DNA of 64,000 bases from an uncultured Planctomycetia bacterium (GCA_964430735.1 CAYSFB010000004.1:104040-168039), one strand, 5' to 3'. Shown: positions 1 through 53,209, counted from the first letter of the stretch. Program-made: numbers and translations. The notes: a model not told the origin generated them from the letters alone.

Positions 1-3000
1 ATCTGGCCGGATTCCAGGAAGTGAACAAGCTCAAAACCCTCAAGGACACGGAAAAAAATATTTCCTTCGAGAAGGCCAACCTCGAACAGGAAAAGCTCCT
101 AGCAGAACTCTCCTCCAAGGGCCTCAAAACACAAGTCGACGAATATCTCGCCGCGACCAAAAAAACCCGTAATCTCCAAGTCTCGCAGAGCGTTCTTCTC
201 GGGAATCTCATGGACTTGGCCAAGTCCCAGAGCATCGACACCGCCTCCTTTGTCGAACTCTCGCGCTACAGCGAGTACCTCAAGTTCTTCAGCGCCCTGG
301 ACCTGGAGCAGGTGATGAAGGAAGTGGAGCTTCTGGAAGACACTGTTTACAAGAACCTGCTTCCGGCCGAAGACGGCCGCAAGCTCCGCGCCGTCGACCG
401 CTTCGTGGGGCTTCTGAACAAGGCCTACCGGATCAAGATGTCCTCGCATGACTTCAGGACCTTGGCTGCCAACAAAGACGACTTCAAGACCGAGGCCTGG
501 GAAGCCTTCCTGAACGATCAGCTCCTGAAGCTCTCTTATTTTGATGATCTGGTTCCGCTGAAGCCCCTTCTGGAAGAAGCGGCCGAGCCCCTGTTCAACT
601 TCTACAAGCTCGTGGATCAGCGCGACGACGCCTTCCTGGAGAATACGGGCCGGATTCTGGAAGAAGAGAACGTCCAGGTCGGCTATCTCATCGCCGGCGG
701 CTATCACACCGAGAACCTGACCCGTCTCTTCAAGAACGAGGGCTACTCCGTCATCGTTCTGACTCCCGTCGTCGAATTCGAAACGGATCAGAAGCTCTAC
801 GAAAAAATGCTCCTCATGCCCTTCATCCTCGCCCAGAGCGAAAAGGAAAAAGAGGAACGCAAGCTGGCCAAAGCGGAAGACCCGGACGCCTCCCGATCGA
901 CGCTCGGGCAAACCCGGATGCTCCAGAGCCCTCTATCTGCTAAGAGAGCGGCCGGCGAGATGGACAGGTCCGGTCTTCCGTCCGAAGTCCTCCTCCTCGC
1001 CGCAAGACTCGCCGCCGAACCTAAACACGAGAATACAAAAGAGACCGTTGCGGAGGTGTTGGATAAATCGCTGGAACAGACTGCGAAAGATATGGTCAGC
1101 AGTTTGGTGTTCGATTCGCTTCAGATGGCTGAACCGCTGGAATATGATCCTGCGAAATTTGCCGAAGATCTGAAAAAGGTCCGGAGGCCGGACGGCGCCC
1201 GGCTGGCGGAGGCCGAAGCCCTGCGAGCCATAATGGCCGGCGAGAGATTTGATCGTCAGGGCCTCCCGGATGAGGCGGTCGAGCTTGCCATGAAACTGCA
1301 TGAAAAACTGACGGACGAAACGGGCCGGATGGACATGGCTCTGCTGTCCGATCTTATCGGTTTTATGCGGCTGATCGCTGATGAGTACACGGCTAATGTG
1401 TATTCGATCGACATGGAGGCGGTTGTAGCCGCGATCGCGAATGAAAACAATCGGATATATGCTTCTTATCCGAAGGAACTGGCGCTCATGAAAAGGCAGA
1501 AGCTGATCGAAATCAGCGAATTCTTGGAGAGCGAACCCGACATAGTTTTTGCCGAGGGACCTTGGAGATATCCGAACTTCAAGTATGGGGTGGTCAGAAT
1601 GCTTGAAAGGGCCGGCCGCGCGGCAGGCTTGGGGCAACGGAGTTCGACGAGCGGCGCTCCCCGCTACAGAAAACTGGTAATCGATTATCTGGCAAAGACC
1701 GGCGAGAGTGCCGCTTTTCAGGAAAAAGTCCTGAAGCTGTACGATCGACTTGACGACCTGGGGCAAAGCGGAGCTTCGTTTGGCCTCTTTCGGAACACTT
1801 TGACGCGTTTTGGATACGCTGCGGAAAAAGGGGACATTCAATTCGAGCTGGACTATTTTGAAGACAGATTTCGATCAGATTACCTCCAAGACGAAGAGGA
1901 GGAAAATGACGAAGAAGACGATGATGCAGATAGAGAAAAAGACGGCGTGAGTCGAAAGAGTTATGCCGAATTGCTTTATGAACATCAGATAGAGCTGCTG
2001 AACCTCTTCGTTTCGCTCACCCACGACGGCACGTCGCCCAAAAAAATCATCCATCTTTTGAATTCATCCATCAGCTACGCTGAAAATGAGCAATCCGCCA
2101 CCGAGTCCGGTCGGTTTGTGAGTCTTTCGCGGTTGCTCGCTTTGGGCGCCGAGTTTTATGGCGCGGACCGCAGGCTCTTGCTGATGCCCTCCTATCTTCT
2201 TACGGAACAGCATGCCTACAAGTGGGGGGTCTTGAGGACGATTGACGGCGAAGCCGTTCGTGCCGGACAGCACTCCACCGAAGTTTACGCGACCCGATGG
2301 ATTCCAAGAGGCTATTTCGGACTGTTTCCCCGCAGGATCAAGATTTTAAAAGTGGGAATTGATACGAGCAACTTCGAGGTGTGGGGCGCCCGGATGGCCA
2401 CCACCCAAGACATCAAGCTCAGCAGCTGGCAGGGCAGCAGCAGCATGCTCAAGATGCCCAACGGCGACATCATCAATCTGAATAAGATCGATGTGAAGAA
2501 GTCCGGCGTCCTGAAGGACGGCCAACTCACCGACGTTCCATACATCAGCTGGAAAGAAAGGGATGTGGTCAGAATCTCCTACGGCCCCAATGCCATCAAC
2601 GCCAAAGCCAACACCGAGTACACCGAGACCTTCCTTCTGACGGAAAGCAATTGGAAGAGATCGAGCTCGGCCTTTTACACCCTTCCCAACGGATTCATCG
2701 TGAACTTGAATAAGATCTCGAAGGAATCCGGTCTAAAAGAAAAAGGGGGTGCCGTTAAAGTTGAACAATACACCCTTTGGCAGAAAGGCCAAACGGTCGT
2801 GGTTCGGTACACGACGGAAGCGGTCGTAGGCATCAAGCTCACCGTAAACAGCGAAAGCTACTTTGATCAGGTGGAAGCGGTGCAAGGCGCCCGGATGGCG
2901 ACTGAATCAGATGCAAAAGCATCCAATGAGCTTGCCGATAAAATTATGGGAATTACCTTGGATCTCGAGAATCCGTGGGAGCAACGGCTCGATGCTATTT

Positions 3001-5237
3001 ACGCTTTGATCCGCGGACTTTCTTATGTCCAAATCGCCGGGTTGCTGCGCGCCTATCGTTCCCACGAGCAATTCACGGCGGATGATCTGCGCCTGGCCAC
3101 GGACAGGGCGATTTACGATACATGGATAGGTCGACGCACCGAGGCGGCTAAGGTTCTTATGCAGGCGAAATATCCTGCACCGGAAGCGGAAAAGATAAGC
3201 CGCATTGTTAGCGAGTTGGTCGAAGTGGCTCTGAGCCAAAAAAGATTACCGCTCATGGAAATCGTTCAGGAGAAACTCGAGGGCTTGAATCTGAGGGAGC
3301 GGAAAGCCGTGCACACCGAATACTACTCTCATTCGAACGATCCAGAGTTCCAACAAAACAACGCTTATTACGTCTTCATCGAACGAATTCTCAGAGAAAG
3401 AGCCGAACCGGCTATGGGAGAGCTGGAAGGAGACTTGATTGCCCCCATCGCGCCCTCGGACGGTTCCCGACTGGCCGCCCCCATTCCTTTTTATGCCGGC
3501 CTTCCCATGCTGCAATCCGTGTCCGGTGATCCCAGGGTATTGATGAACCAGGTGAATGCGCACCCTGATACGAAAGCGTTCAAGCAAGCGCTTGTTATGG
3601 CTATAAAAAATGGGGATTCGCGATTCGTAAAAAGTATGGGGATACCGTTAGGCGAAAATCAGACCCTCCCTGGAAGGTTTGAGATTGTTGGGCAGGGCAA
3701 AAGTCGCAGGCTGATGTATTTCGCTGATCGGGAAGATGGTTATCTGGTCATTTACGAGGCGAACCTTCCTGATGAAATCGATAAGGTCATTGCAAAGGCC
3801 ATCGATGATAAATTTGACTCAATGGATGATGTGATAAACGGATTGATCAAATGGGTCAAAACCGATAATGCCGCCCGGATGGCCACCACCCAAGACATCA
3901 AGCTCAGCAGCTGGCAGGGCAGCAGCAGCATGCTCAAGATGCCCAACGGCGACATCATCAATCTGAATAAGATCGATGTGAAGAAGTCCGGCGTCCTGAA
4001 GGACGGCCAACTCACCGACGTTCCATACATCAGCTGGAAAGAAAGGGATGTGGTCAGAATCTCCTACGGCCCCAATGCCATCAACGCCAAAGCCAACACC
4101 GAGTACACCGAGACCTTCCTTCTGACGGAAAGCAATTGGAAGAGATCGAGCTCGGCCTTTTACACCCTTCCCAACGGATTCATCGTGAACTTGAATAAGA
4201 TCTCGAAGGAATCCGGTCTAAAAGAAAAAGGGGGTGCCGTTAAAGTTGAACAATACACCCTTTGGCAGAAAGGCCAAACGGTCGTGGTTCGGTACACGAC
4301 GGAAGCGGTCGTAGGCATCAAGCTCACCGTAAACAGCGAAAGCTACTTTGATCAGGTGGAAGCGGTGCAAGGCGCCCGGATAGCGGGAATGGAAGGTGTC
4401 ATCCGATTCTTGGATTTCCTGTCGGTCAAATTCGAAGCTGAGACGGTGGTCGAGATCAGCGACGTCGGCGATCTGGCGCTTACGTCCGCGTTGGCGCGCA
4501 GGGGCGCGAATCTGAGAGGCGCGTCCAAGTCGCAGCTCGTGAAGTCGTTCAGTCCTTCGGTCAGCGGGATCACGGATGCATTGGGAATGCCGTTGTCTTC
4601 AGGCGATGCCGGCACGATCCGGACGACGCAAGCCGGCGGTCAAGCCGCATTTGGCATCGTCGGCGCCGGTGATCAGCTCGGGCAGCACAAGACGCTGGCC
4701 CGCGTCATATCCGGTATGGGGGATGCGGAAGTTCCCGTGCTTATCACGGTCAACGGTAAAACGGCCTCCACGATCAGCGCGATGTCGGCCAAGGAATGGC
4801 TGGAGTTCTTTTCTCTGCTCGAAACGCTCGTTGGCGGCAATATCTTCGTCGACATCGATGGGATGGGTGAAAAAGACACCGGACACCTTGCTCCCGAGAA
4901 CTCGCGGCAGGGTATTCTGACCGGAGCTGGACAAGGCGAGCTTCTCCGTCTCGGTCTGGGCGGGGCCACAGCCAGCGACGGGCTTCCGGATCCTCTGGCC
5001 CTTCTCGCATACGGTGTTTTGCTGCAAACGGATCCGGGCACCGAGGTTAGTCTGGCCGACCGTCTCGAACGGGTGCTTCCGGGCTCGACTCCGGACGTTT
5101 TGAGGGCCATACGCCAGCTTGCCGAGCAGCGCCAAAAAGAACTGGTATTGAGTCGTCCCTTCAAAAGCCTGTCCCAAGCAGAGCAGTTCTTCGAAGCCTA
5201 CGCGATCGTGCGGGCTGCGATCGTCTGGGCGGCCTAA
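1..5237 (+). CDS. Giant multidomain protein A, N-terminus outside window. It has the C-terminal half of a TraB/Tiki-like domain, an acidic stretch, and two identical ~166-aa beta-rich repeat modules.
   Basis: The ORF is open from the window edge and the track ORF 21-5237 uses GTG. Residues ~1-280 align with residues ~250-500 of the 2802-aa ORF at 44801, for example YLIAGGYHTENL...VIVLTPVVEFETDQKLYEKMLL against VLITGGYHTDHL...AVITPQVIHETDKRGYERLLL. There is a DEEEENDEEDDDAD acidic patch. No recognisable catalytic domain is present in the remainder. Confidence 0.6.
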   Translation, partial: LAGFQEVNKLKTLKDTEKNISFEKANLEQEKLLAELSSKGLKTQVDEYLAATKKTRNLQVSQSVLLGNLMDLAKSQSIDTASFVELSRYSEYLKFFSALDLEQVMKEVELLEDTVYKNLLPAEDGRKLRAVDRFVGLLNKAYRIKMSSHDFRTLAANKDDFKTEAWEAFLNDQLLKLSYFDDLVPLKPLLEEAAEPLFNFYKLVDQRDDAFLENTGRILEEENVQVGYLIAGGYHTENLTRLFKNEGYSVIVLTPVVEFETDQKLYEKMLLMPFILAQSEKEKEERKLAKAEDPDASRSTLGQTRMLQSPLSAKRAAGEMDRSGLPSEVLLLAARLAAEPKHENTKETVAEVLDKSLEQTAKDMVSSLVFDSLQMAEPLEYDPAKFAEDLKKVRRPDGARLAEAEALRAIMAGERFDRQGLPDEAVELAMKLHEKLTDETGRMDMALLSDLIGFMRLIADEYTANVYSIDMEAVVAAIANENNRIYASYPKELALMKRQKLIEISEFLESEPDIVFAEGPWRYPNFKYGVVRMLERAGRAAGLGQRSSTSGAPRYRKLVIDYLAKTGESAAFQEKVLKLYDRLDDLGQSGASFGLFRNTLTRFGYAAEKGDIQFELDYFEDRFRSDYLQDEEEENDEEDDDADREKDGVSRKSYAELLYEHQIELLNLFVSLTHDGTSPKKIIHLLNSSISYAENEQSATESGRFVSLSRLLALGAEFYGADRRLLLMPSYLLTEQHAYKWGVLRTIDGEAVRAGQHSTEVYATRWIPRGYFGLFPRRIKILKVGIDTSNFEVWGARMATTQDIKLSSWQGSSSMLKMPNGDIINLNKIDVKKSGVLKDGQLTDVPYISWKERDVVRISYGPNAINAKANTEYTETFLLTESNWKRSSSAFYTLPNGFIVNLNKISKESGLKEKGGAVKVEQYTLWQKGQTVVVRYTTEAVVGIKLTVNSESYFDQVEAVQGARMATESDAKASNELADKIMGITLDLENPWEQRLDAIYALIRGLSYVQIAGLLRAYRSHEQFTADDLRLATDRAIYDTWIGRRTEAAKVLMQAKYPAPEAEKISRIVSELVEVALSQKRLPLMEIVQEKLEGLNLRERKAVHTEYYSHSNDPEFQQNNAYYVFIERILRERAEPAMGELEGDLIAPIAPSDGSRLAAPIPFYAGLPMLQSVSGDPRVLMNQVNAHPDTKAFKQALVMAIKNGDSRFVKSMGIPLGENQTLPGRFEIVGQGKSRRLMYFADREDGYLVIYEANLPDEIDKVIAKAIDDKFDSMDDVINGLIKWVKTDNAARMATTQDIKLSSWQGSSSMLKMPNGDIINLNKIDVKKSGVLKDGQLTDVPYISWKERDVVRISYGPNAINAKANTEYTETFLLTESNWKRSSSAFYTLPNGFIVNLNKISKESGLKEKGGAVKVEQYTLWQKGQTVVVRYTTEAVVGIKLTVNSESYFDQVEAVQGARIAGMEGVIRFLDFLSVKFEAETVVEISDVGDLALTSALARRGANLRGASKSQLVKSFSPSVSGITDALGMPLSSGDAGTIRTTQAGGQAAFGIVGAGDQLGQHKTLARVISGMGDAEVPVLITVNGKTASTISAMSAKEWLEFFSLLETLVGGNIFVDIDGMGEKDTGHLAPENSRQGILTGAGQGELLRLGLGGATASDGLPDPLALLAYGVLLQTDPGTEVSLADRLERVLPGSTPDVLRAIRQLAEQRQKELVLSRPFKSLSQAEQFFEAYAIVRAAIVWAA
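2387..2896. repeat. First copy of a 510-bp intragenic direct repeat with perfect nucleotide identity to 3872-4381
   Basis: The same nucleotide string cgcccggatggccaccacccaagacatc...gtgcaaggcgcccggat occurs twice, 1485 nt (495 codons) apart and in frame. It encodes ARMATTQDIKLSSWQGSS...QVEAVQGAR in both copies. Confidence 0.8.
3872..4381. repeat. Second copy of the 510-bp intragenic direct repeat
   Basis: Identical to 2387-2896 at the nucleotide level. Each unit also contains two internal ~25-aa sub-repeats: LKMPNGDIINLNKIDVKKSGVLKDG and YTLPNGFIVNLNKISKESGLKEKGG. Confidence 0.8.
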
Positions 5238-44800: not shown

Positions 44801-47800
44801 ATGCTCTTTTGGGCTCTCTTGCAGTCCACAAGTCTGCTCCGTACTTTAAAACTTCGGATAAGTCGTGCGCGCCGCCGCCGCGTGCCGCTGCGCGCCCTTG
44901 CGCTGGTCCTCGTCCTCGCGCTCGGGTTTGAGGAATGCGCACAAGCGGCTCCGGCGGTGCTTGCGGCCGCTGCGCTCCGTCCGGCCCCGCTTCCCGATTA
45001 CGGTCTTCCGGCGTCCGTCGCAACGGTCGACGACGCGTTTCGGTCGACGGATCCGGATGCGCCCAAAATCCTCCTGGTCCGTGACGCCCACGCCAACCCC
45101 TCCGGACAATTCAATCTGGCGCGCACGCTCGACGCGGTGCTCGAGCGCGAAAATATTTCTGTCGTTTACACCGAAGGCGCCGACCGCGACGTCTCGCTTC
45201 TGTACCTGCGCGATCTGGCCGACCCGTCGGCGCTTGCCCGTGTGGCGAGGGAGTATGTGCATCGGGGCGGGATCAAGGGCAGCGAATATCTGGAGTTGAC
45301 CGGGTCCCGGCGTTTTACGATCCGCGGCGTGGAAGAGGAGCGATTGTACGGAAAGGCGTTGGATGTGTACCGCGGAGTGAGCGCCGCGCGCTCGGACGTC
45401 GGGCGGTTCTTGGCCGAATTGCGCGTGACGGCCGAATTCGTTGAGGATAAAACGCTTCCGGCCGATTTGATCGCCGCGCTCCGGCTGCGCCGGGCGCTGC
45501 GGGAAAAGCGGATCGGGTGGTCGGAATATCTGGACCGGATGGTCGCGCTCAGTCTGAAGCTCGGGCTGACGCTCTCGAATCTGCCGGACCTCGAGGCGCT
45601 CCGCGCGTTGAGGGCGCGGGAGCAGGAGTTGGACGCCGAGGCGGCCGGCCGCGAATGGGATTCCGCGCTCGCCCGCGGCGTCGATCCGGAAAAGGGGTCC
45701 GAAGAATTTCCGCACTTGCGTCGGTACGCGGCTTATAAAAAAATTCTGTCGAACACCCGGTTCCGGCGCCTGACGGCCGATCAAGAAGCGCTGGAACAGG
45801 CTGTGTACGGCGCTCTCGCCGGAAGTGCCGACGAGCTTCAATCGGTCCGCATCGCGCTGGCGATTGAGACGCTCGGTGCGATCGCGGCCATGGAGGCGAC
45901 TCCGGACCAGATCCGCCGTTACCGTTCCGACGCCGAGGCCCACGACCCGGTCCGCATCGCCGCCTGGTTGAACCGGCGGTTGATGCAGTTGGGAACGGGG
46001 CATGAGCGGGCGCTTTTTATGGACGAGGCTTCGACCCGGATCTTGCGGCAGGCGGCCGGTTTTTATCTCACCGCGGATGCGCGCGACCGCGTCTTTGTCC
46101 GCCGCACGCTCCGCCGCATGCAGAGAGACGGGCTCCGGACATCCGTTCTCATCACCGGCGGCTATCACACGGACCATCTCAAGGCCCTTCTCCGGCATCA
46201 GAACATTTCGTACGCAGTGATCACTCCCCAGGTGATCCATGAAACGGACAAGCGGGGGTACGAACGCCTGCTGCTGGGCTCCGACCGCTCCACCCTCATC
46301 CCGCGTTATCACGACAGCCTTCCGGCCGCCGCCCGGCTCCCTCTGATCCGGTCGCTCGGGCTGGACCCGGCGGGTGTCGATGCGGCGCGTCTCGCCCAAT
46401 CATCCGCCGACCGCACGCCGCCGATCGGGACGGTCCGGGAAGGGCTCAACGGTCTGATGCTCGCCGTGAACATTCTCGACCTCGGCATCGAATACCGCTC
46501 GAACCAGCCGCTTGTGAACCGGAATGGTCTGAAAAAACTCAAGGAGCTCATTCCGACCCTGGCGGACATGGGCATCCGCGAGATTTATGTGTACGGTCTG
46601 GCCGAAACGAGCGTGTTGTCCAAACACATCCACCAGGTGCCGACCACCGCGCAATACTTTTTCCACGAAGGCAGCGCCTCGGTGACGGTGGCCCATTACC
46701 CGACGCGGAGCGAGAAGCTGGGCGAGGTGACGCTGCGGGATTCGTGGGGGAATATTTTTTCGATCAATGATATGCGCCGGATCAACCCCATCCTTTCGGA
46801 AGGGGATGCGGAGCAGGACTTGCTCGACGTGACGGCTGCGGCGCAGGCCGCCGGGATCACCGTCGTCGCCGACATGATCAGCTGGCTTTCGCCCGGTGCG
46901 ATCAACAGCTCGAATTACCGGCAGATGTTTTACCGGGAGATCCCGGCCGCCGACAACGAGCGCTTCCGGCAGGTGTCCGATGCCGAAAAGAACGCGTGGA
47001 TCGAGCGGAACATTCTGAGCAAGGATTTGAGGGGGTCGTTTGCGGTCCGCGTGACGGAAGGCGGCGTCGAGCGCATTGTGCTCGTGAAGCATCTCGCGTT
47101 TCACGGGTCCCACAGCGCCGACCAGGCGATTCCGAATCCGCTGCATCCCGCCACGCTGCAGTACTACCTCGACTCCGTCAAAAAGCAGATTGACCGCGGC
47201 ATGAGCGGTCTGCGGGTCGACCTGGGCCACCTTCTGCTCAAGCGCAACATCCGGGGTTACTTCGACGAGATCCGGCACAACGCGGAGGCGTCCGGATCGA
47301 CCATGGAGGAGTGGCTCCGGAACAGCGGCATGGACATCCGTCCCGGCGAAAATTACGAGGCCTGGTGGAGCCGCCAGCCGGAGCCGTGGAGGCAGATCGT
47401 CGACGAAGCCAGTTATTACGCGCTCGAAAAAAACCGGAGCATTCACTTTTATCTGGAGACGTACAACCCGGTCGAGCAGCACGAGTTGTTCAACCTGGGT
47501 GTCGACGGCGCTTACCTCGGAAAGATGTTCGAAGCGAACTACCGCGTCGCCGGCGGAGGATCGCCGCGGGCTTTTGACGACGCGGTGAACGCCGCGCTCT
47601 ACACCCGGCCGCGGTCGCTGATCTACATGACGAACTTCGACCAGATCTCGGAAGAGGCGATGGGCGGTTCCGGCCGCGCCGCGGGGATGCTCCTGGCGAT
47701 TCTGGCCCACGTCGGTTCACCCGCGATTGTCGACTTGAGAGACTTCATGTTCCACCGGGGCCATGTCGCCAAAATCGTCGGCGGCACCCCCGACGCCAAA

Positions 47801-50800
47801 GATCCCCACACCCATCCGTTTCCCACTCACGAGCAGCTCTTGCGCCGGAAGGACTTCGAGGGGATCAAGGCCGAGATCCGGAAGAGCCCTTGGCGCACGA
47901 TTCTTCGGGACTTTTTGAACGCGGTTCCCGGCGACGGGGAAAAGTACGTCACCATCCTCAACAACTCAAACCGCGAGCGGTACTTCACGATCGGCTGGCG
48001 GGCTCAGAACGACCGTTGGGCGATCGCGGTGCTGGACTTCAAGCCGCAGTATGGACGTGATCCGGGGGTGACCGTTCAGCTTCCCAAGAGCGATGATCAA
48101 ACCGGCTTCGACGTTCTGAATTACCGTCCCGTGGAGCTCTCAGGCGCCGAATGCCGAATTTCTAGGTGGGAACCGGGACATCCGGGTTCCCCGGCTGTCG
48201 TCGAAGTCCGGTTCAAGCCCGAAGATGAAATCAAGCCGTACCGATTTATCACCCTGACTCCGATTCATCCCGTGGCCGCCCCGCGCAGGGACGCCAAACC
48301 CTCGCTCGAGAACGCGCTGCGTCAGAATTACATCAAGGGCCGCGTACTGGAGCTGACGCATATCGTCCGCGACGCGGAATTCAAATCGATCCGCCAAAGC
48401 GCGGTATTCTTTTCCCTCCTGGACGACGACTACTTTGTAAGGGCATTTGCGGGCAATCTGCTGGCCGGCCGCGCGCGTCAGGGGTGGGTCGAAGCCGATC
48501 CGACCAAACTGCTCGCTCATCTGCGCGATCCGCTCAAGCCTCTCAAGGAACTCCGGACGCCGCGGATTCCGGGCCGTCAGGACTTCGATCCGATCCGCGC
48601 CCGCCGCAACAGCCGTTACGTCATGCTGTGGGTGCTGGCCAGAATCCTGCAGCCGGACGCCGAAGCCGTGGCCGCCACGATGGGCCGGGACTTGAAGCCG
48701 TACCAGGAGCGTGTCCGCCGGGTTCTGGATCTGCAGCTCCGGCGCGAAGCCGAGTCCTGGGGGCCGGGACATGAGGCGCGGCTGCGCGCGCTGGTCGACA
48801 AACACGACGCGGACCTGGTGCTGGGCGCTCGGCCCGTACTGCCCCCGTTGGAAGTGATGCGGCTGGTGATGCTGAGGGCGCAAAAGGTCGAAGGGTCTTT
48901 GCCGGCCGGACAGCGCGACAATTTTTATTGGGTCAAGCTTGCGGTCGAGCGTGCGTATCCGCAGCGGGAGGACGACCCCGTTTCCGATATTCTTTATGCT
49001 TCGACCGCGGATCCTGGCTCTTCCGGCGCGCGGCTGGCGGACGATCTTAAGGAGAGAGTGGAGCGGATTTTCATGGCGCGGTTGAACCGCGAGTCCGCGA
49101 TCCGGGCGGCCTGGATCCGGGCAGTGCTTTCTTTGAACCCCGCGGTGCTCTGGTTCGTTGGCGGCGTTTCGGTGACCACGATGCAGGATTACCGGGTGGT
49201 CGGAGCGTCGATCTGGGCCGTAGTTTACGGGATCTATCGAGCGAGCTTGAACCGTATCATCGAAGATCCTGTTTTTCATGCGCGTTATCTGGTGTCGCAT
49301 CCCACGGGCGGACAAGACCTGCTTCCGGAGGTGGTCAAGATCCTGGACGGCGCGCGGCTCAGTGCTTTGGATAATTTTGAATCCTTTTATCAAAAGCTTC
49401 GGGCATTGCCCCAGGACGCCACGGCGGAGCAGCTGACAGACGCGATGGATAAGGCGGCGCGGTGGACACGCGGACTGGACGGCATCTCGCTCACGGACGA
49501 CCAGCAGAGGTGGATGTTCTTAAAAGCCAAATTTCTCGCCTTGCAGGCGCAACTGATATGGGAAGCGGCGGATTTGTCTTCCGGCGGCTCGGACAAGGCG
49601 GATCGACTGGATCGTGCTGCCGAGATGTTCCGGTCGGCTGCCGAGCAGCTCGAAAAACACCGGAACCCACTCTACGCCCGCCTTTTGAACGGGTATCAGG
49701 CCGCCGCCAGTCTCGAATCCTTCGTCGCAGGTTACCAGGAGGAGTTGAAGCGGCTCGATGCGGTTGCTGTGACTCCGGAGGCGTTGTCCCGCCGTAGGCT
49801 TTTTAACGACTTCGAATCCAAGGGTCGGTGGCAGCGGGAAATGATCGAGGAGGCCGTTTGGGGAGGAATTCCATTCGTTTCCGATCAGCTTATTGTCCGC
49901 GATAGGATCGCCCGGCGCTTGCATACCGCATTCGAGACGCACCACGCTCTTAAGGCCGAATGGATTCCCAAAGCCAGAGCAGCCGTCGGGCTTCCGCCGT
50001 CCGGTCCGGATCGGATCGTCGATCTTTTGGGAGGGCGACCTGTCAGCCGCAGTATTTCGCGGGAGATGGAAGGTGCCGACCTGGTGTTTTCGTATTTCCG
50101 CAGCATGATGCGGAAAGAGCTCGTAAGCAAAGACATCCGCGATATGAAGCGTGTCCTCATCATCGGCGCGTCCCGTCGCGAGGTGATCGATTGGATCAAT
50201 GCCACGCCGGACACCACCCGGATCACAGCGGTGAACATCGACGGCCGCATGCTCGAAGAAATCGAAAGGCATTTTGTCGAGCATCAGCCCGACGCGCTCA
50301 ACCGGATCGAGATGTTTCGGGCAGACGCCACGCAGCTCGACCCCGCGTATTTCCCGGACGAAACCTACGATTTCATTTACGAGTGGTCGGTCGACCGCAG
50401 CGCCTTCCGGGAGCAGTCGGTGGCCGACCGGGTGTTACCGGCCATCCATCGGGAAGAGACGCGGGTTCTGAAAAAGGGCGGGTATTTATACAAGCTGGTT
50501 ACGGACGATGATTTGTGGGATTTTGACAACCAGCTCGACCGCATCGGCGGCCATCTGTTCATGAAGCCGGCCGCCGGCGCGCGGCTGGCGGATCGCTCCA
50601 GTGTTTTTGAGTTGAATTCCAGGGATACGGGCGAGATCAAGGGTTCGTTCAAGTGGATACAGAAGGCGGACCGGGCGCAGGGGATCATGGAAGACCATTT
50701 GGTATTTTTATGGGCCAATGAACCTTCCGGTCCGCCCGCCCGCTCCGCCGTTTACGATATTTTTGTCATTCCCGTGCGGGAGATTGCGCGCTGGAAGAGC

Positions 50801-53209
50801 ATGGACGGGATACGGGGTTCTTATCAGGGTTGGGCAAATCTTTATTTTGACGCCGACAAGCGGTTGGTGCGGAATCGCGAGGATGCCGTTTGGGGAGGCT
50901 GGGTGACCAAGCGTTCGCGTCTGCACCGATATCCCTGGATCAACGAATTCCTGGTCCGCCGGTTGACCGTGCTGGCGGGGCGTCAGTTGTCGCCGAACGC
51001 TTCGGGAATGGACGACGAAATCGACGGTTTGGACGCATGGCTGGCGTTGACGCCCGAGGAATCCCAAATTCCGATGCGGCTGGACCGGCAGGTGCAGCAA
51101 GAACGCACGGTCGCGGCGATTGAGGCCCTCGAGTCCGACGAACGGCAGCTGGAGTCGTACCCCCGGGCCAAAGCGGAGGCGATTTTCCGAGAGTTGCTGC
51201 GTCAGGTGATCCATTCCGGATCTTATGCCGGTCCCGCTCACGGGATCCCCGCTGCGGACGTTCAAAAAATATCGGAGAATTTGAACGCCGGCGCTTCCAT
51301 TCAGTCATTTTCCGAAGATCTGCTGAACGATCCGGGACTTTCCGTTCAGAGTCGCAACTTGTTCGCGGGCTATCTGATGCAATTCCGGCCGAGGGGGAAA
51401 AATCCTCTGGCGTTTGACGCCGGAAGGCCCCTGTTCCGGTACTACCTCGGGATCGAACCGGCGGCTCCTGACGTTTTTAAAGGGGTTTACCGGTATGTCC
51501 GAGTGATCGGCGCGGGAGCGGAAGGGGTGGTGTTTGAGGTCGCGGACACGCGGTCGGGCCGGACTCTTGCGCTCAAGGTGCTTGCCGGCGGGGGCGCGGG
51601 ACAGGCGGAGACGTTCGCCCGGGCGCTGTCGGGATATTCCGGCGTCGCCGAGATCGTCGAGTATGGGAGCGCCGGCAGATTTGATTACATTGTCCAGGAA
51701 CTTTTGGACGGAGCCGAGATGAGCCACCGCAGCTTTTTGAGCGACCTCGACCGGCTTTATTACAGTCCGGACGAGCGCTTGCAGGTGCTGCTCCGGCTCA
51801 TCGAAGGACTTTCTGAGTTGATGGACCGCGGGATCCTGCCCAAAGATTTTCAATTCATGAGCAAGGCTTCCGCGGGGAGCGCCGACATCAAGTTTTTTGA
51901 CAGCGGCCAATGGATGTTTTTTGGAAGCCCGCAAAGCATCCGCGATTTTGGCGACGACGATCTGGAGGTCTTCACCGCCTCGTTCACACGCTTTTTTGCC
52001 CACCTGCTGCGTTCATCCTCGCGCGATCTCATGGTTGGCCGCTCGCAGGATTCGGAAGCCCTGCGCGCTCTGGTCCTGGAATCGGACCGGATCGAGGCAA
52101 AAATAAAACCGGATGCTCCGTACGACTTCGTTCCTTACATCCGGATGGTCCGCGCGGCCGCGCAGATGACTTTGCAGAATCAGGCGGCGGAAGCTGACTT
52201 TGAAAAAGCTTACCGTAGCTTGGGGATGTACGAACAGATGCGTCTGGACCAATTCGCCGGCCGCATGTCCGACATCACCGCCGTGTTTAAAAACGTGCGC
52301 CTCTACAAGTCGGCGCGTCTCCGCACCGTTTTGGGCGCGCGGCTGGCGCAAGCGGAGGACTTCGGCATATCGGACGAGCGGTTGAGGCCATTTTTGGCGG
52401 CGGTGGCGAGGGCGAAACGTGCCGTGTTGTCGCAGGGTGCAAAAAAGTTCGTGCTCGCGGACGATGAGGGACGGCTCAAGACGATCGTGCTCGGCGCTCA
52501 GGCCGTCACGACCGACAGGATTGCGCCGTCCGAACCGGTTGAAGCGGAGTATGTGCCGCGGTTGTCGGGTGAGCAGGCGGTCGAGCGGGATGCGGAGGTC
52601 TTCGGTCTTTTGGCGGAGATCGCCGACCGCTGGGGTGTGGATCCGACGAATTTTGAGTTTCGATGGGAAGACGTGGCTTCGGGCGCGGACGCAGCGGCGT
52701 TGCCGGCTCTGAAGAAGAGCCTGATCGCGCTTCAGAAAACCGTTCGGAGCAAGGGCTGGGGCGTGTTGCGGATCGCCGGATTCTCGGAGCCGGATCCGAT
52801 CGCGGGAGCGCCCACGACTGCGTTGTGGAACCGGAAACACCCTGGTTGGATGGATGAGCGTATCCGGGCTTCCAGGGCCCATAACGTCCATCTTGCGTTC
52901 GAGCGGGAGGGGGACGAGTCCCTTCCTTATATGAGCGCGATCCTGTTCTCCGGTCTTCTGAGTCATGCGCTTCAGATCCGGGACGCGGCCGAACGCCGGG
53001 AGCGTCTCGCTTCGCTGACTCCGATTTTTAGGAGTCTCACCGGATCCATGCTGTCGTTGACCGACGAGGCGGAGCCCGGCTTCACGGTCTATGAGCCCGC
53101 CAAGTTGAGCGTCTATCCCGCCATCCAACCGCTCACACTGCGCGGATACCTCGACCTCGTCGTTTATCTCCAGAGTCTCTCCCGCGTGTCCGTTTCCGAA
53201 TCCGCGTAA
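44801..53209 (+). CDS. Giant (2802 aa) multidomain protein B: signal-anchor, TraB/Tiki-like domain, GH13-like TIM-barrel module, Rossmann MTase-like module, divergent protein-kinase-like module
   Basis: This is a single uninterrupted ORF with coding-like codon usage throughout. The N-terminus is RRRRVPLRALALVLVLALGF. The motifs LLVRDAHAN...ITGGYHTDHL are paralogous to ORF A at 1-5237. Module-level evidence is given in the findings. Confidence 0.8.
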   Translation: MLFWALLQSTSLLRTLKLRISRARRRRVPLRALALVLVLALGFEECAQAAPAVLAAAALRPAPLPDYGLPASVATVDDAFRSTDPDAPKILLVRDAHANPSGQFNLARTLDAVLERENISVVYTEGADRDVSLLYLRDLADPSALARVAREYVHRGGIKGSEYLELTGSRRFTIRGVEEERLYGKALDVYRGVSAARSDVGRFLAELRVTAEFVEDKTLPADLIAALRLRRALREKRIGWSEYLDRMVALSLKLGLTLSNLPDLEALRALRAREQELDAEAAGREWDSALARGVDPEKGSEEFPHLRRYAAYKKILSNTRFRRLTADQEALEQAVYGALAGSADELQSVRIALAIETLGAIAAMEATPDQIRRYRSDAEAHDPVRIAAWLNRRLMQLGTGHERALFMDEASTRILRQAAGFYLTADARDRVFVRRTLRRMQRDGLRTSVLITGGYHTDHLKALLRHQNISYAVITPQVIHETDKRGYERLLLGSDRSTLIPRYHDSLPAAARLPLIRSLGLDPAGVDAARLAQSSADRTPPIGTVREGLNGLMLAVNILDLGIEYRSNQPLVNRNGLKKLKELIPTLADMGIREIYVYGLAETSVLSKHIHQVPTTAQYFFHEGSASVTVAHYPTRSEKLGEVTLRDSWGNIFSINDMRRINPILSEGDAEQDLLDVTAAAQAAGITVVADMISWLSPGAINSSNYRQMFYREIPAADNERFRQVSDAEKNAWIERNILSKDLRGSFAVRVTEGGVERIVLVKHLAFHGSHSADQAIPNPLHPATLQYYLDSVKKQIDRGMSGLRVDLGHLLLKRNIRGYFDEIRHNAEASGSTMEEWLRNSGMDIRPGENYEAWWSRQPEPWRQIVDEASYYALEKNRSIHFYLETYNPVEQHELFNLGVDGAYLGKMFEANYRVAGGGSPRAFDDAVNAALYTRPRSLIYMTNFDQISEEAMGGSGRAAGMLLAILAHVGSPAIVDLRDFMFHRGHVAKIVGGTPDAKDPHTHPFPTHEQLLRRKDFEGIKAEIRKSPWRTILRDFLNAVPGDGEKYVTILNNSNRERYFTIGWRAQNDRWAIAVLDFKPQYGRDPGVTVQLPKSDDQTGFDVLNYRPVELSGAECRISRWEPGHPGSPAVVEVRFKPEDEIKPYRFITLTPIHPVAAPRRDAKPSLENALRQNYIKGRVLELTHIVRDAEFKSIRQSAVFFSLLDDDYFVRAFAGNLLAGRARQGWVEADPTKLLAHLRDPLKPLKELRTPRIPGRQDFDPIRARRNSRYVMLWVLARILQPDAEAVAATMGRDLKPYQERVRRVLDLQLRREAESWGPGHEARLRALVDKHDADLVLGARPVLPPLEVMRLVMLRAQKVEGSLPAGQRDNFYWVKLAVERAYPQREDDPVSDILYASTADPGSSGARLADDLKERVERIFMARLNRESAIRAAWIRAVLSLNPAVLWFVGGVSVTTMQDYRVVGASIWAVVYGIYRASLNRIIEDPVFHARYLVSHPTGGQDLLPEVVKILDGARLSALDNFESFYQKLRALPQDATAEQLTDAMDKAARWTRGLDGISLTDDQQRWMFLKAKFLALQAQLIWEAADLSSGGSDKADRLDRAAEMFRSAAEQLEKHRNPLYARLLNGYQAAASLESFVAGYQEELKRLDAVAVTPEALSRRRLFNDFESKGRWQREMIEEAVWGGIPFVSDQLIVRDRIARRLHTAFETHHALKAEWIPKARAAVGLPPSGPDRIVDLLGGRPVSRSISREMEGADLVFSYFRSMMRKELVSKDIRDMKRVLIIGASRREVIDWINATPDTTRITAVNIDGRMLEEIERHFVEHQPDALNRIEMFRADATQLDPAYFPDETYDFIYEWSVDRSAFREQSVADRVLPAIHREETRVLKKGGYLYKLVTDDDLWDFDNQLDRIGGHLFMKPAAGARLADRSSVFELNSRDTGEIKGSFKWIQKADRAQGIMEDHLVFLWANEPSGPPARSAVYDIFVIPVREIARWKSMDGIRGSYQGWANLYFDADKRLVRNREDAVWGGWVTKRSRLHRYPWINEFLVRRLTVLAGRQLSPNASGMDDEIDGLDAWLALTPEESQIPMRLDRQVQQERTVAAIEALESDERQLESYPRAKAEAIFRELLRQVIHSGSYAGPAHGIPAADVQKISENLNAGASIQSFSEDLLNDPGLSVQSRNLFAGYLMQFRPRGKNPLAFDAGRPLFRYYLGIEPAAPDVFKGVYRYVRVIGAGAEGVVFEVADTRSGRTLALKVLAGGGAGQAETFARALSGYSGVAEIVEYGSAGRFDYIVQELLDGAEMSHRSFLSDLDRLYYSPDERLQVLLRLIEGLSELMDRGILPKDFQFMSKASAGSADIKFFDSGQWMFFGSPQSIRDFGDDDLEVFTASFTRFFAHLLRSSSRDLMVGRSQDSEALRALVLESDRIEAKIKPDAPYDFVPYIRMVRAAAQMTLQNQAAEADFEKAYRSLGMYEQMRLDQFAGRMSDITAVFKNVRLYKSARLRTVLGARLAQAEDFGISDERLRPFLAAVARAKRAVLSQGAKKFVLADDEGRLKTIVLGAQAVTTDRIAPSEPVEAEYVPRLSGEQAVERDAEVFGLLAEIADRWGVDPTNFEFRWEDVASGADAAALPALKKSLIALQKTVRSKGWGVLRIAGFSEPDPIAGAPTTALWNRKHPGWMDERIRASRAHNVHLAFEREGDESLPYMSAILFSGLLSHALQIRDAAERRERLASLTPIFRSLTGSMLSLTDEAEPGFTVYEPAKLSVYPAIQPLTLRGYLDLVVYLQSLSRVSVSESA

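Follow-up and report, generated by a model that had tools for sequence, protein, structure and literature searches.

Which residues does a protein-kinase fold need? A natural test of this question is offered by a domain in which the core has been kept and four catalytic-loop residues (His, Arg, Lys and Asn) have been replaced in a conserved manner. It is encoded within a giant gene in a stretch of 64,000 nucleotides (nt) from an uncultured Planctomycetia bacterium (GCA_964430735.1 CAYSFB010000004.1:104040-168039), which is referred to as the window; all coordinates count from its first nucleotide. An initial annotation had described the region as a divergent kinase-like module, either an atypical kinase or a pseudokinase, in a protein with a signal-anchor. 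Based on sequence comparison and structural modeling, we hold with moderate confidence that the segment at about 51470–52258 is a genuine, strongly diverged Hanks-type protein-kinase-fold domain with an atypical and possibly weak nucleotide-dependent activity. The host gene and the domain are located as follows:

44801–53209, + strand: giant open reading frame (ORF) of 2802 amino acids (aa), uninterrupted, host of the kinase-like module
51470–52258, + strand: protein-kinase-like domain (aa ~2224–2486) with N-lobe, hinge, catalytic loop, DSG, very short activation segment, αF and C-terminal helices

Signature Motifs of the Kinase-Like Domain

51506–51541, + strand: Gly-loop motif IGAGAEGVVFEV, from aa 2236
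51509–51526, + strand: Gly-rich loop G2237-A-G2239-A-E-G2242 (GxGxxG)
from 51569, + strand: ALKVL, from aa 2257
51575–51577, + strand: β3 Lys K2259, VAIK equivalent (LALK)
from 51605, + strand: AETFARAL, from aa 2269
51608–51610, + strand: putative αC Glu E2270
from 51686, + strand: YIVQELLDG (hinge), from aa 2296
from 51824, + strand: DRGILPKDF, from aa 2342
51839–51862, + strand: catalytic loop P2347-K-D2349-F-Q2351-F-M-S2354 in place of H-R-D-x-K-x-x-N
51893–51913, + strand: FFDSGQW, from aa 2365
51899–51907, + strand: D2367-S-G in place of DFG, followed by the conserved W2371

All six motifs singled out by the initial annotation lie in one frame of the ORF 44801–53209 and follow one another in kinase order between 51506 and 51913. 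The domain continues beyond the end assigned to it at that time: the helices of the structural model reach to about aa 2486 (nt ~52258). Its Gly-rich loop is a clean GxGxxG that aligns to invariant columns. In an alignment with kinases (A1), G2239, A2257, K2259 and D2349 are invariant, and D2367 and G2369 are nearly so. The column of K2259, which is likewise invariant in the alignment of the three closest sequences (A2), holds Lys in 142 of 145 canonical matches, and the column of D2367 holds Asp in 138 of them. The αC Glu is less certain: an Ala-Glu pair stands at Lys+11 in all three subfamily members, the alignment with canonical kinases is ambiguous around E2270, so that its equivalence to the canonical residue is presumed, and the spacing from β3 to αC amounts to 11 residues as opposed to ~19 in canonical kinases.

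The most conspicuous departure concerns the catalytic loop, in which the Asp is retained as D2349, the His is replaced by Pro, the Arg by Lys, the Lys at D+2 by Gln, and the Asn at D+5 by Ser. The original proposal that both the His and the Asp of this loop are non-canonical thus holds for the His alone: D2349 aligns with the Asp of HRD. From DSG to S-P-Q, the equivalent of APE, the activation segment comprises ~12 residues compared with 20–35 in typical kinases, and therefore no P+1 loop or substrate platform is left. Further downstream, E2389 aligns to the αF Asp.

Homology to Protein Kinases by Sequence

A Pfam search with aa 2190–2500 returned Pkinase (PF00069) alone, with an E-value of 0.01 and 15.7 bits over profile positions 1–123 of 263; APH, Kdo/WaaP, RIO and ABC1 gave no match to this segment at E ≤ 10. 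Weak kinase models and nothing else were found in NCBIfam. Among the sequences of the PDB, phmmer retrieved PknA from Mycobacterium tuberculosis (E = 1.3e-5) and ~50 weaker matches, all but two of them kinases, with CASK among the best.

An exhaustive phmmer search with the entire module (aa 1927–2515) against 1.84 billion cluster representatives yielded 1020 proteins at E ≤ 1e-3, of which the best 150 were listed, 148 were inspected and 145 were aligned. Nearly all of the best 150 align at module positions ~293–450, corresponding to aa 2219–2376 and spanning the Gly loop to DFG. Within the 145 aligned matches the His, Arg and Asp of HRD, the Lys at D+2, the Asn at D+5 and the DFG Asp are present in 144, 137, 142, 141, 143 and 138 sequences, respectively; because these signature residues occur in nearly all of them, the matches are canonical Hanks kinases. 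Accordingly, almost all of the 148 inspected proteins are canonical Ser/Thr kinases, the best of which reach E ~2e-9 at 30–39% identity, and P0021 and P0023 (P numbers denote individual database proteins) score above the Pfam Pkinase cut-off. Comparing the profile of the three-member subfamily described below with a canonical kinase profile by hhalign resulted in a probability of 99.6% and an E-value of 5.4e-24 over query columns 9–162; this match covers the N-lobe up to DFG and stops there.

Other searches remained empty: When 5.8 billion proteins were searched with the kinase segment through a word index, no match was obtained, the index being swamped by low-information words, and the same search with the three-sequence alignment A2 gave none either; the C-lobe alone (aa 2290–2515) found no kinase in the PDB. 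On account of the phmmer matches, the aligned signature residues and the hhalign result, we regard it as established at the level of sequence that the N-lobe and catalytic core are homologous to protein kinases.

Predicted Fold

For AlphaFold2 (AF2) we used 22 sequences, of which 19 were canonical kinases and the others the query and its two close relatives. The resulting model (mean predicted local distance difference test score, pLDDT, 77.5; predicted template modeling score 0.78) predicts a bilobal domain, in which three N-terminal strands are followed by a short αC, β4–5 and the hinge, αD, αE, the strands of the catalytic loop, a short strand after DSG, αEF, a long αF and further helices. 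Foldseek found at least 1971 matches to this model in the PDB at E ≤ 1e-3, and the top 50 are exclusively protein kinases, among them PknA, CK1/Yck2, CASK, TTBK1, CaMKII, Chk2, CK2 and Wee1. The six motifs, ordered and in frame, are confirmed; the divergent kinase-like module suspected initially is supported by phmmer, hhalign and AF2/Foldseek alike, and a bilobal kinase-like fold is what the model predicts.

Close Relatives of the Kinase-Like Domain

Among the best 150 of the 1020 matches, closer relatives are restricted to two proteins: P0019 (694 aa, E = 3e-28, 32% identity) and P0082 (1126 aa, 25% identity). Their hosts are low-GC organisms (0.39 and 0.36 GC, respectively) that are unrelated to the organism of the window. 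Aligned with each other in A2, the query, P0019 and P0082 show pairwise identities of 23–30%. Invariant in the N-lobe are two glycines of the Gly loop, the Ala and Lys (K2259) of the VAIK motif, the Ala-Glu at Lys+11 and the hinge Glu; further on, the motif Pro-x-Asp-x-Gln-Phe (P2347, D2349, Q2351, F2352) and a Trp at DFG-Asp+4 are invariant. The conservation of the Lys/Glu pair and of the Asp therefore extends to all three members (K2259, E2270, D2349), and so does the catalytic loop P-x-D-[FL]-Q-F, whereas the DFG equivalent varies from D-S-G in the query to D-Y-G in P0019 and N-L-D in P0082. By their alignment, the three proteins make up a very small subfamily of the Hanks kinases that has diverged deeply and is marked by P-x-D-[FL]-Q-F in the catalytic loop.

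Upstream of the domain, the similarity to these relatives continues into a helical extension, which is preceded by a further domain:

51065–51469, + strand: helical N-terminal extension (from aa ~2089–2126 to 2223; ~90–130 aa), conserved in P0019 and P0082
50630–51265, + strand: upstream domain of the same module (aa ~1944–2155), with homologs in P0020 and P0031

The upstream domain matches P0020, a hypothetical protein from Omnitrophota, at E = 1e-10; there, a GAAR-type linker comes next and then a kinase-like region of a different kind (HRNQF...LIDKG). P0019 (locus L081, 1051–3135) has a signal peptide of its own, contains the linker 'KGAARANS', ends in -TSA and adjoins a radical-SAM gene. 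P0082 (locus L082, 626–4006) is followed by a Methyltransf_11 gene. A functional pair of methyltransferase and kinase, for which this neighbor might be taken, was rejected, as it has no detectable relation to the methyltransferase module of the giant protein (module 4, see below). Similarly, the kinase-like modules of P0003, P0005 and P0011, which belong to the protein family of the host, were rejected as orthologs, since their pairwise similarity is not significant; from this lack of similarity it follows that kinase cargo was gained several times.

Atypical Enzyme, Pseudokinase or Repurposed Fold

What would such a domain do? Its retained core consists of GxGxxG, K2259, E2270, D2349 and D2367. 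Because the Lys, the Glu and the catalytic Asp are kept at 23–30% identity, the domain most likely still binds ATP and catalyzes a nucleotide-dependent transfer, and a role as pure scaffold appears less likely. The mechanism would be atypical, that is, non-RD and independent of an activation loop, and, since the Asn and Lys of the catalytic loop are missing, it would probably involve low activity or an unusual use of metal.

Several observations weigh against this reading. The Pkinase score of 15.7 bits is below the Pfam gathering threshold of 31.7 bits, and beyond DFG neither the PDB search with the C-lobe nor hhalign detects any sequence similarity to kinases. Nearly all active kinases have the Mg-binding Asn and the Lys of the catalytic loop, whose absence is typical of pseudokinases; moreover, the DFG Asp is an Asn in P0082, and with three members in the subfamily the conservation statistics are thin. 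Regarding the model, the 19 canonical kinases in the AF2 alignment bias it toward a kinase fold, and the template modeling (TM) scores of the Foldseek matches are modest (0.45–0.53). As to the setting of the domain, export of the host protein is deduced from an N-terminal pattern read from the sequence, and no dedicated secretion system, C39 peptidase or protease gene was found beside the giant gene among the neighboring genes examined. The reading is sequence- and model-based throughout.

The strongest competitor is a pseudokinase, i.e., a kinase fold without phosphotransfer that serves as a nucleotide-binding switch, a scaffold or a substrate-docking module, be it for a target protein or for neighboring modules like the methyltransferase. 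We consider this quite possible: The His, Arg, Lys (→Gln) and Asn (→Ser/Ile) that are lost in the subfamily are kept in 137–144 of the 145 canonical relatives, N-L-D replaces DFG in P0082, the activation segment is truncated and has no APE motif, and both the structural and the sequence searches have CASK, for a long time regarded as a pseudokinase, among their best matches. Nevertheless, pseudokinases are operationally defined by the absence of at least one out of β3 Lys, HRD Asp and DFG Asp, and the query has all three (K2259, D2349, D2367). Furthermore, the Lys, the αC-type Glu and the catalytic Asp are invariant in the three members at 23–30% identity, and the Gly loop is intact. The initial suggestion of an atypical kinase or pseudokinase therefore stands insofar as the loop is non-canonical; with the Lys/Asp/Asp triad in place, its second half is possible and not established.

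It is improbable, in our view, that the fold has been repurposed for another reaction or a small-molecule substrate, for which AMPylation by SelO and glutamylation by SidJ are precedents. In its favor, the activation segment of ~12 residues lacks a P+1 loop, as would suit a small-molecule substrate; the catalytic loop, though conserved, is non-canonical (Gln at D+2, Trp after DFG), and the adjacent cargo modules are enzymes of metabolic type. However, the nearest sequence relatives are all Hanks Ser/Thr protein kinases and none is an APH, ChoK, SelO or SidJ protein, and Pfam gave no match to APH, Kdo, RIO or ABC1 at E ≤ 10. A chance or compositional resemblance without kinase kinship, which the sub-threshold Pfam score and the empty first word-indexed search might have suggested, is refuted by the 1020 significant matches of the exhaustive phmmer search, by signature residues that align column for column, by the hhalign E-value of 5.4e-24 and by a list of Foldseek matches that holds kinases only. 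Because the core residues persist at very low identity, we prefer an atypical active enzyme over both a pseudokinase and a repurposed fold.

The Modular Host Protein and Its Family

The giant protein is identical in sequence to the database entry P0001 of NCBI and Logan, and a full-length search revealed 17 relatives of 1809–4883 aa, the named ones of which all originate from Omnitrophota. The architecture of the host is best described by its parts:

44801–44950, + strand: signal-peptide-like N-terminus with basic n-region RISRARRRR, hydrophobic core ALALVLVLALGF and AQA|AP
44939–46381, + strand: conserved N-terminal domain (aa ~47–527, ~480 aa), found by BLASTP in 16 of 17 relatives
46397–49024, + strand: module 2 (aa 533–1408), homologous to P0006 aa 702–1705
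49040–49348, + strand: module 3 (aa 1414–1516, 103 aa), 55% identical to P0002 aa 1933–2044
49364–50575, + strand: module 4 (aa 1522–1925), a helical region, then a class I S-adenosylmethionine (SAM)-dependent methyltransferase with its core at aa ~1795–1897 (nt 50183–50491)
52349–53206, + strand: conserved C-terminal domain (aa 2517–2802, ~290 aa), ending in ...YLQSLSRVSVSESA and common to P0002–P0005

Module 5 (aa 1931–2511) holds the upstream domain and the kinase-like unit; its first part (aa 1931–2220) gave no significant match in the PDB or in the Pfam/NCBIfam searches.

The N-terminus was assigned by reading the sequence together with a Kyte–Doolittle scan. Its hydrophobic core comprises 12 residues, and the A-x-A|AP site as well as the overall pattern are conserved in the relatives; in addition, P0001–P0013 contain few or no strong transmembrane segments. 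Given the basic n-region, the 12-residue core and A-x-A|AP, a cleavable signal peptide appears likelier than the signal-anchor proposed initially, and of the two options put forward at that time, membrane anchoring or secretion, the pattern would favor the latter. A Tat (twin-arginine translocation) signal, considered because of RRxxLR-like n-regions, is unsupported, as Pfam TAT_signal was not matched.

According to BLASTP, 16 of the 17 relatives have most of an N-terminal block (aa ~17–532) in common with the query; P0006 begins inside this block and matches its last part only, and P0017, which does not have the N-terminal part, matches aa 418–503. Invariant in the alignment of 16 sequences (A3) are D95-x-H97, Q103, E125, E178, E274, R428 and G453-G454-x-H456, which correspond to A3 positions 49/51/57/79/132/228/382/407/408/410 (query numbering is obtained by adding 46). 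The D-x-H, E, E, R and GG-x-H among them fit the pattern of the Tiki/TraB/ChaN/erythromycin-esterase superfamily. PF04187 (ChaN, Tiki superfamily) was matched by three of the 16 members carrying the domain (best E = 1.7e-4) and not by the query itself. The AF2 model is confident (pLDDT 86.4) and shows a small α/β core with a large helical insertion; a Foldseek search with it found nothing significant, EreC and ChaN being among the weak top matches (E = 0.3–0.9). The Tiki-like module of the initial annotation thus receives weak but convergent support, and a ChaN/Tiki/erythromycin-esterase superfamily label may be reasonable, though unproven. The domain is a candidate hydrolase or processing enzyme.

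The internal blocks of BLASTP similarity cover aa 495–1415 with P0006 and aa 1415–1522 with P0002. Module 2 contains motifs resembling regions I–IV of GH13 (ADMISW, GLRVDLGH, YLETY, MTNFDQ), and a PDB profile search returned GH13 α-glucosidases alone, over regions I and II and without significance (E = 2.4); no Pfam match and no significant NCBIfam or PDB sequence match were obtained. Module 2 may therefore be a GH13-like TIM (triosephosphate isomerase) barrel, and the glycosidase-like module proposed earlier depends on this non-significant match. The two moderately hydrophobic helices of module 3, AVLSLNPAVLWFVGGVSVTT and VVGASIWAVVYGIY, may be a hairpin for membrane insertion within a protein that is soluble elsewhere. 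Module 4 exceeds the Pfam cut-offs for both Methyltransf_25 (28.2 bits, cut-off 27) and Methyltransf_11 (27.2 bits, cut-off 21.2). The C-terminal block (aa 2512–2802) is shared with P0002–P0005; the domain has no Pfam, NCBIfam or PDB sequence match and no detectable relatives outside the family. Most family members end in a small-residue tail (-SA, -AA, -SV), as do the standalone relatives P0019 and P0020, and this tail could be a C-terminal recognition signal.

Which enzymes are carried between these conserved parts differs from relative to relative: Precomputed Pfam assignments comprise protein kinase, methyltransferase, inositol monophosphatase, α/β-hydrolase, CofD, response regulator, GH77, GDPD, SecA, M20 peptidase, FHA and HPr/PEP-utilising domains. 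Kinase domains recur as cargo, and P0011 has two canonical ones. By its sequences, this is a family with a conserved N-terminal domain and shuffled enzyme cassettes between that domain and the C-terminus. The fusion of a kinase-like module to other modules, regarded at first as unusual, is not a singular case but the rule in a protein family of the Omnitrophota.

Within this arrangement, the kinase-like domain would form a cargo cassette (module 5) in a modular protein that is exported and has the order signal-peptide-like N-terminus, N-terminal domain, possibly GH13-like module, small hydrophobic module, methyltransferase, kinase-like module and C-terminal domain. Export itself is suggested by the conserved N-terminal pattern and the near absence of strong transmembrane segments. 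Since neither ATP nor SAM is available outside the cytoplasm, the most plausible site of action for the kinase-like and methyltransferase modules would be the interior of a target cell, either prey or host. Such a site of action fits the predatory or parasitic lifestyle that has been proposed for Omnitrophota (10.1101/2023.11.21.568195; 10.64898/2026.06.07.730766).

A Five-Residue Motif at the Module Boundaries

All module boundaries of the giant protein, and likewise those of its relatives (P0002–P0014), coincide with the five-residue motif [GA]-A-R-[LM]-[ASG]; the sites in the giant protein are:

46382–46396, + strand: AARLA, aa 528–532
49025–49039, + strand: GARLA, aa 1409–1413
49349–49363, + strand: GARLS, aa 1517–1521
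50576–50590, + strand: GARLA, aa 1926–1930
52334–52348, + strand: GARLA, aa 2512–2516

The BLASTP homology blocks shared with the relatives begin and end at these GAR[LM] sites. Compared with shuffled sequences, the motif is strongly enriched: 5 sites against 0.14 expected in the query, 11 against 0.39 in P0011 and 12 against 0.34 in P0013, and it is 13–40-fold above shuffles in the 13 family proteins that have it at least twice. Altogether, 77 sites were counted in 15 family proteins (46,880 aa), with fewer than 0.4 expected per protein, and none in ten housekeeping proteins of the window (7,866 aa). The spacing between sites ranges from 17 to 1138 aa; the flanks are not conserved, though rich in Pro, Ser, Ala, Asp and Glu.

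Is it the peptide or the underlying DNA that is maintained? Across the 23 sites of P0011 and P0013 many synonymous codons are used, which argues for selection on the motif peptide. A DNA-level element, be it a recombination site or an internal start, was rejected as a general explanation on these grounds; an internal start is additionally disfavored because the Leu codons CTG and CTC are unable to start and no Shine–Dalgarno sequence lies upstream. Running counter to this rejection, three of the five sites in the giant gene (49025–49039, 50576–50590 and 52334–52348) share the identical 15-mer GGCGCGCGGCTGGCG. The paralog described below favors GGCGCCCGG[CA]TGGC[GC] at its sites. The uniformity of the 15-mer within the gene may stem from codon bias, from gene conversion or from junctional recombination.

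Three roles are conceivable for the motif, namely as a processing site, as a structural linker and as a cassette junction, and the modules would possibly be released at the G-A-R-[LM]-A boundaries. Taken further, the family might represent an exported bacterial 'polyprotein' that is cut at G-A-R-[LM]-A by its N-terminal domain or by a trans-acting protease into free enzymes acting in prey or host cells, with the motif doubling as a cassette-shuffling junction; one of the released enzymes would be a kinase-like protein of ~65 kDa whose catalytic loop is of a new type (P-x-D-[FL]-Q-F, no Asn/Lys). We regard this scenario as doubtful at present.

Genomic Surroundings

The upstream neighbors of the giant gene are ordinary chromosomal genes encoding UvrA, a polysaccharide biosynthesis cluster, DnaG, RpoD and AddAB, and so are those downstream, encoding MarR, a TolC-like protein, an RND pump, MgtE and LeuRS. 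The RpoD in the window is 62% identical to the RpoD of a Candidatus Omnitrophota metagenome-assembled genome, which points to this phylum as the origin of the window. Directly 5' of the giant gene, the segment 38001–44000 with AddB/AddA has a G+C content of 0.66–0.67, compared with 0.52–0.63 in the remaining window. A second member of the family is located at the left edge:

21–5237, + strand: family paralog, left-truncated, at least 1738 aa, starting within the conserved N-terminal domain and ending in ...IVWAA

It contains five GAR[LM]A sites and no Pfam matches. Together with the giant gene it demonstrates that the genome has at least two paralogs of the family within 45 kb.

Comparison with Known Systems

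The closest known counterparts of the domain are the bacterial Hanks-type Ser/Thr kinases (PknA/PknB, PF00069), to which it is homologous from β1 to DFG with 30–39% identity to the best matches. Shared features are the Gly loop, the VAIK Lys, the hinge E-x-x-x-G, the catalytic Asp, the DFG Asp and the predicted bilobal fold. The differences lie in the catalytic loop (P-K-D-F-Q-F-M-S instead of H-R-D-L-K-P-x-N), in DSG instead of DFG and SPQ instead of APE, in a C-lobe that is unrecognizable by sequence past αF, and in a modular, presumably exported host instead of a receptor-like kinase. With three members found among ~15 billion proteins, the domain belongs to a very small, deeply diverged branch of this superfamily. 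A second point of reference is the CaM-kinase (calmodulin-dependent kinase) domain of CASK, a top match in sequence and structure, which retains Mg-independent activity. Like the query, it is devoid of the catalytic-loop Asn; however, CASK keeps HRD and has lost the DFG Asp, whereas the query has lost the His and Arg and keeps the DFG Asp, so that the kinship is one at the level of the superfamily only.

In concept, the query may be likened to the secreted effector kinases OspG/NleH, HopBF1 and the LegK family. In these effectors the kinase domain is compact, its activation segment is reduced, and it is exported and presumed to act in another cell. None of their families was matched among the listed PDB phmmer and Foldseek results, and no type III or type IV secretion system is evident.

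Regarding the host protein, MARTX and polymorphic toxins (CdiA with its VENN and Rhs with its DPxGL junctions) likewise feature conserved termini, variable effector cassettes and a short junction peptide, and MARTX toxins are processed after Leu and before a small residue. The [LM]-[AS] of the boundary motif resembles this Leu|small-residue site. In contrast to these toxins, to which there is no sequence homology, cleavage of the query is hypothetical; and neither a cysteine protease domain (CPD) or other protease nor RHS, filamentous-haemagglutinin or type I secretion components were detected in the domain scans of the giant protein or in the adjacent genes.

Unusual is less the kinase-like domain itself than the cassette architecture with its boundary motif. 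The context weighs more than the domain: mid-sized multi-enzyme proteins of the Omnitrophota that are built from motif-delimited cassettes. Their nearest parallel are the giant proteins of the same phylum, in which unrelated enzyme domains, including the methyltransferase PF08241 and kinases, tile one polypeptide and for which post-translational cleavage has been proposed (10.1101/2023.11.21.568195; 10.64898/2026.06.07.730766). The query shares with them, specifically with class 1 (10.64898/2026.06.07.730766), the tiling of several unrelated enzyme domains. It differs in size: The studies of giant proteins cover at least 10–30 thousand residues with a length criterion of at least 10,000 aa, below which both the query (2802 aa) and its relatives (1809–4883 aa) fall. 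The GAR[LM]A motif and the conserved N- and C-terminal domains do not appear in the two preprints, and text searches of them yielded no mention of the motif, of a polyprotein or of a Tiki-like domain (10.1101/2023.11.21.568195; 10.64898/2026.06.07.730766); the words 'Tiki', 'polyprotein' and 'linker' are absent from both, 'motif' from the 2026 paper and 'TraB' from the 2023 paper. According to West-Roberts et al. (2023), it is unknown at which points the Omnitrophota giant proteins are cleaved (10.1101/2023.11.21.568195). If the boundary motif is a processing site, it would identify such points, make the cleavage proposal directly testable and allow giant proteins to be divided computationally into their functional units.

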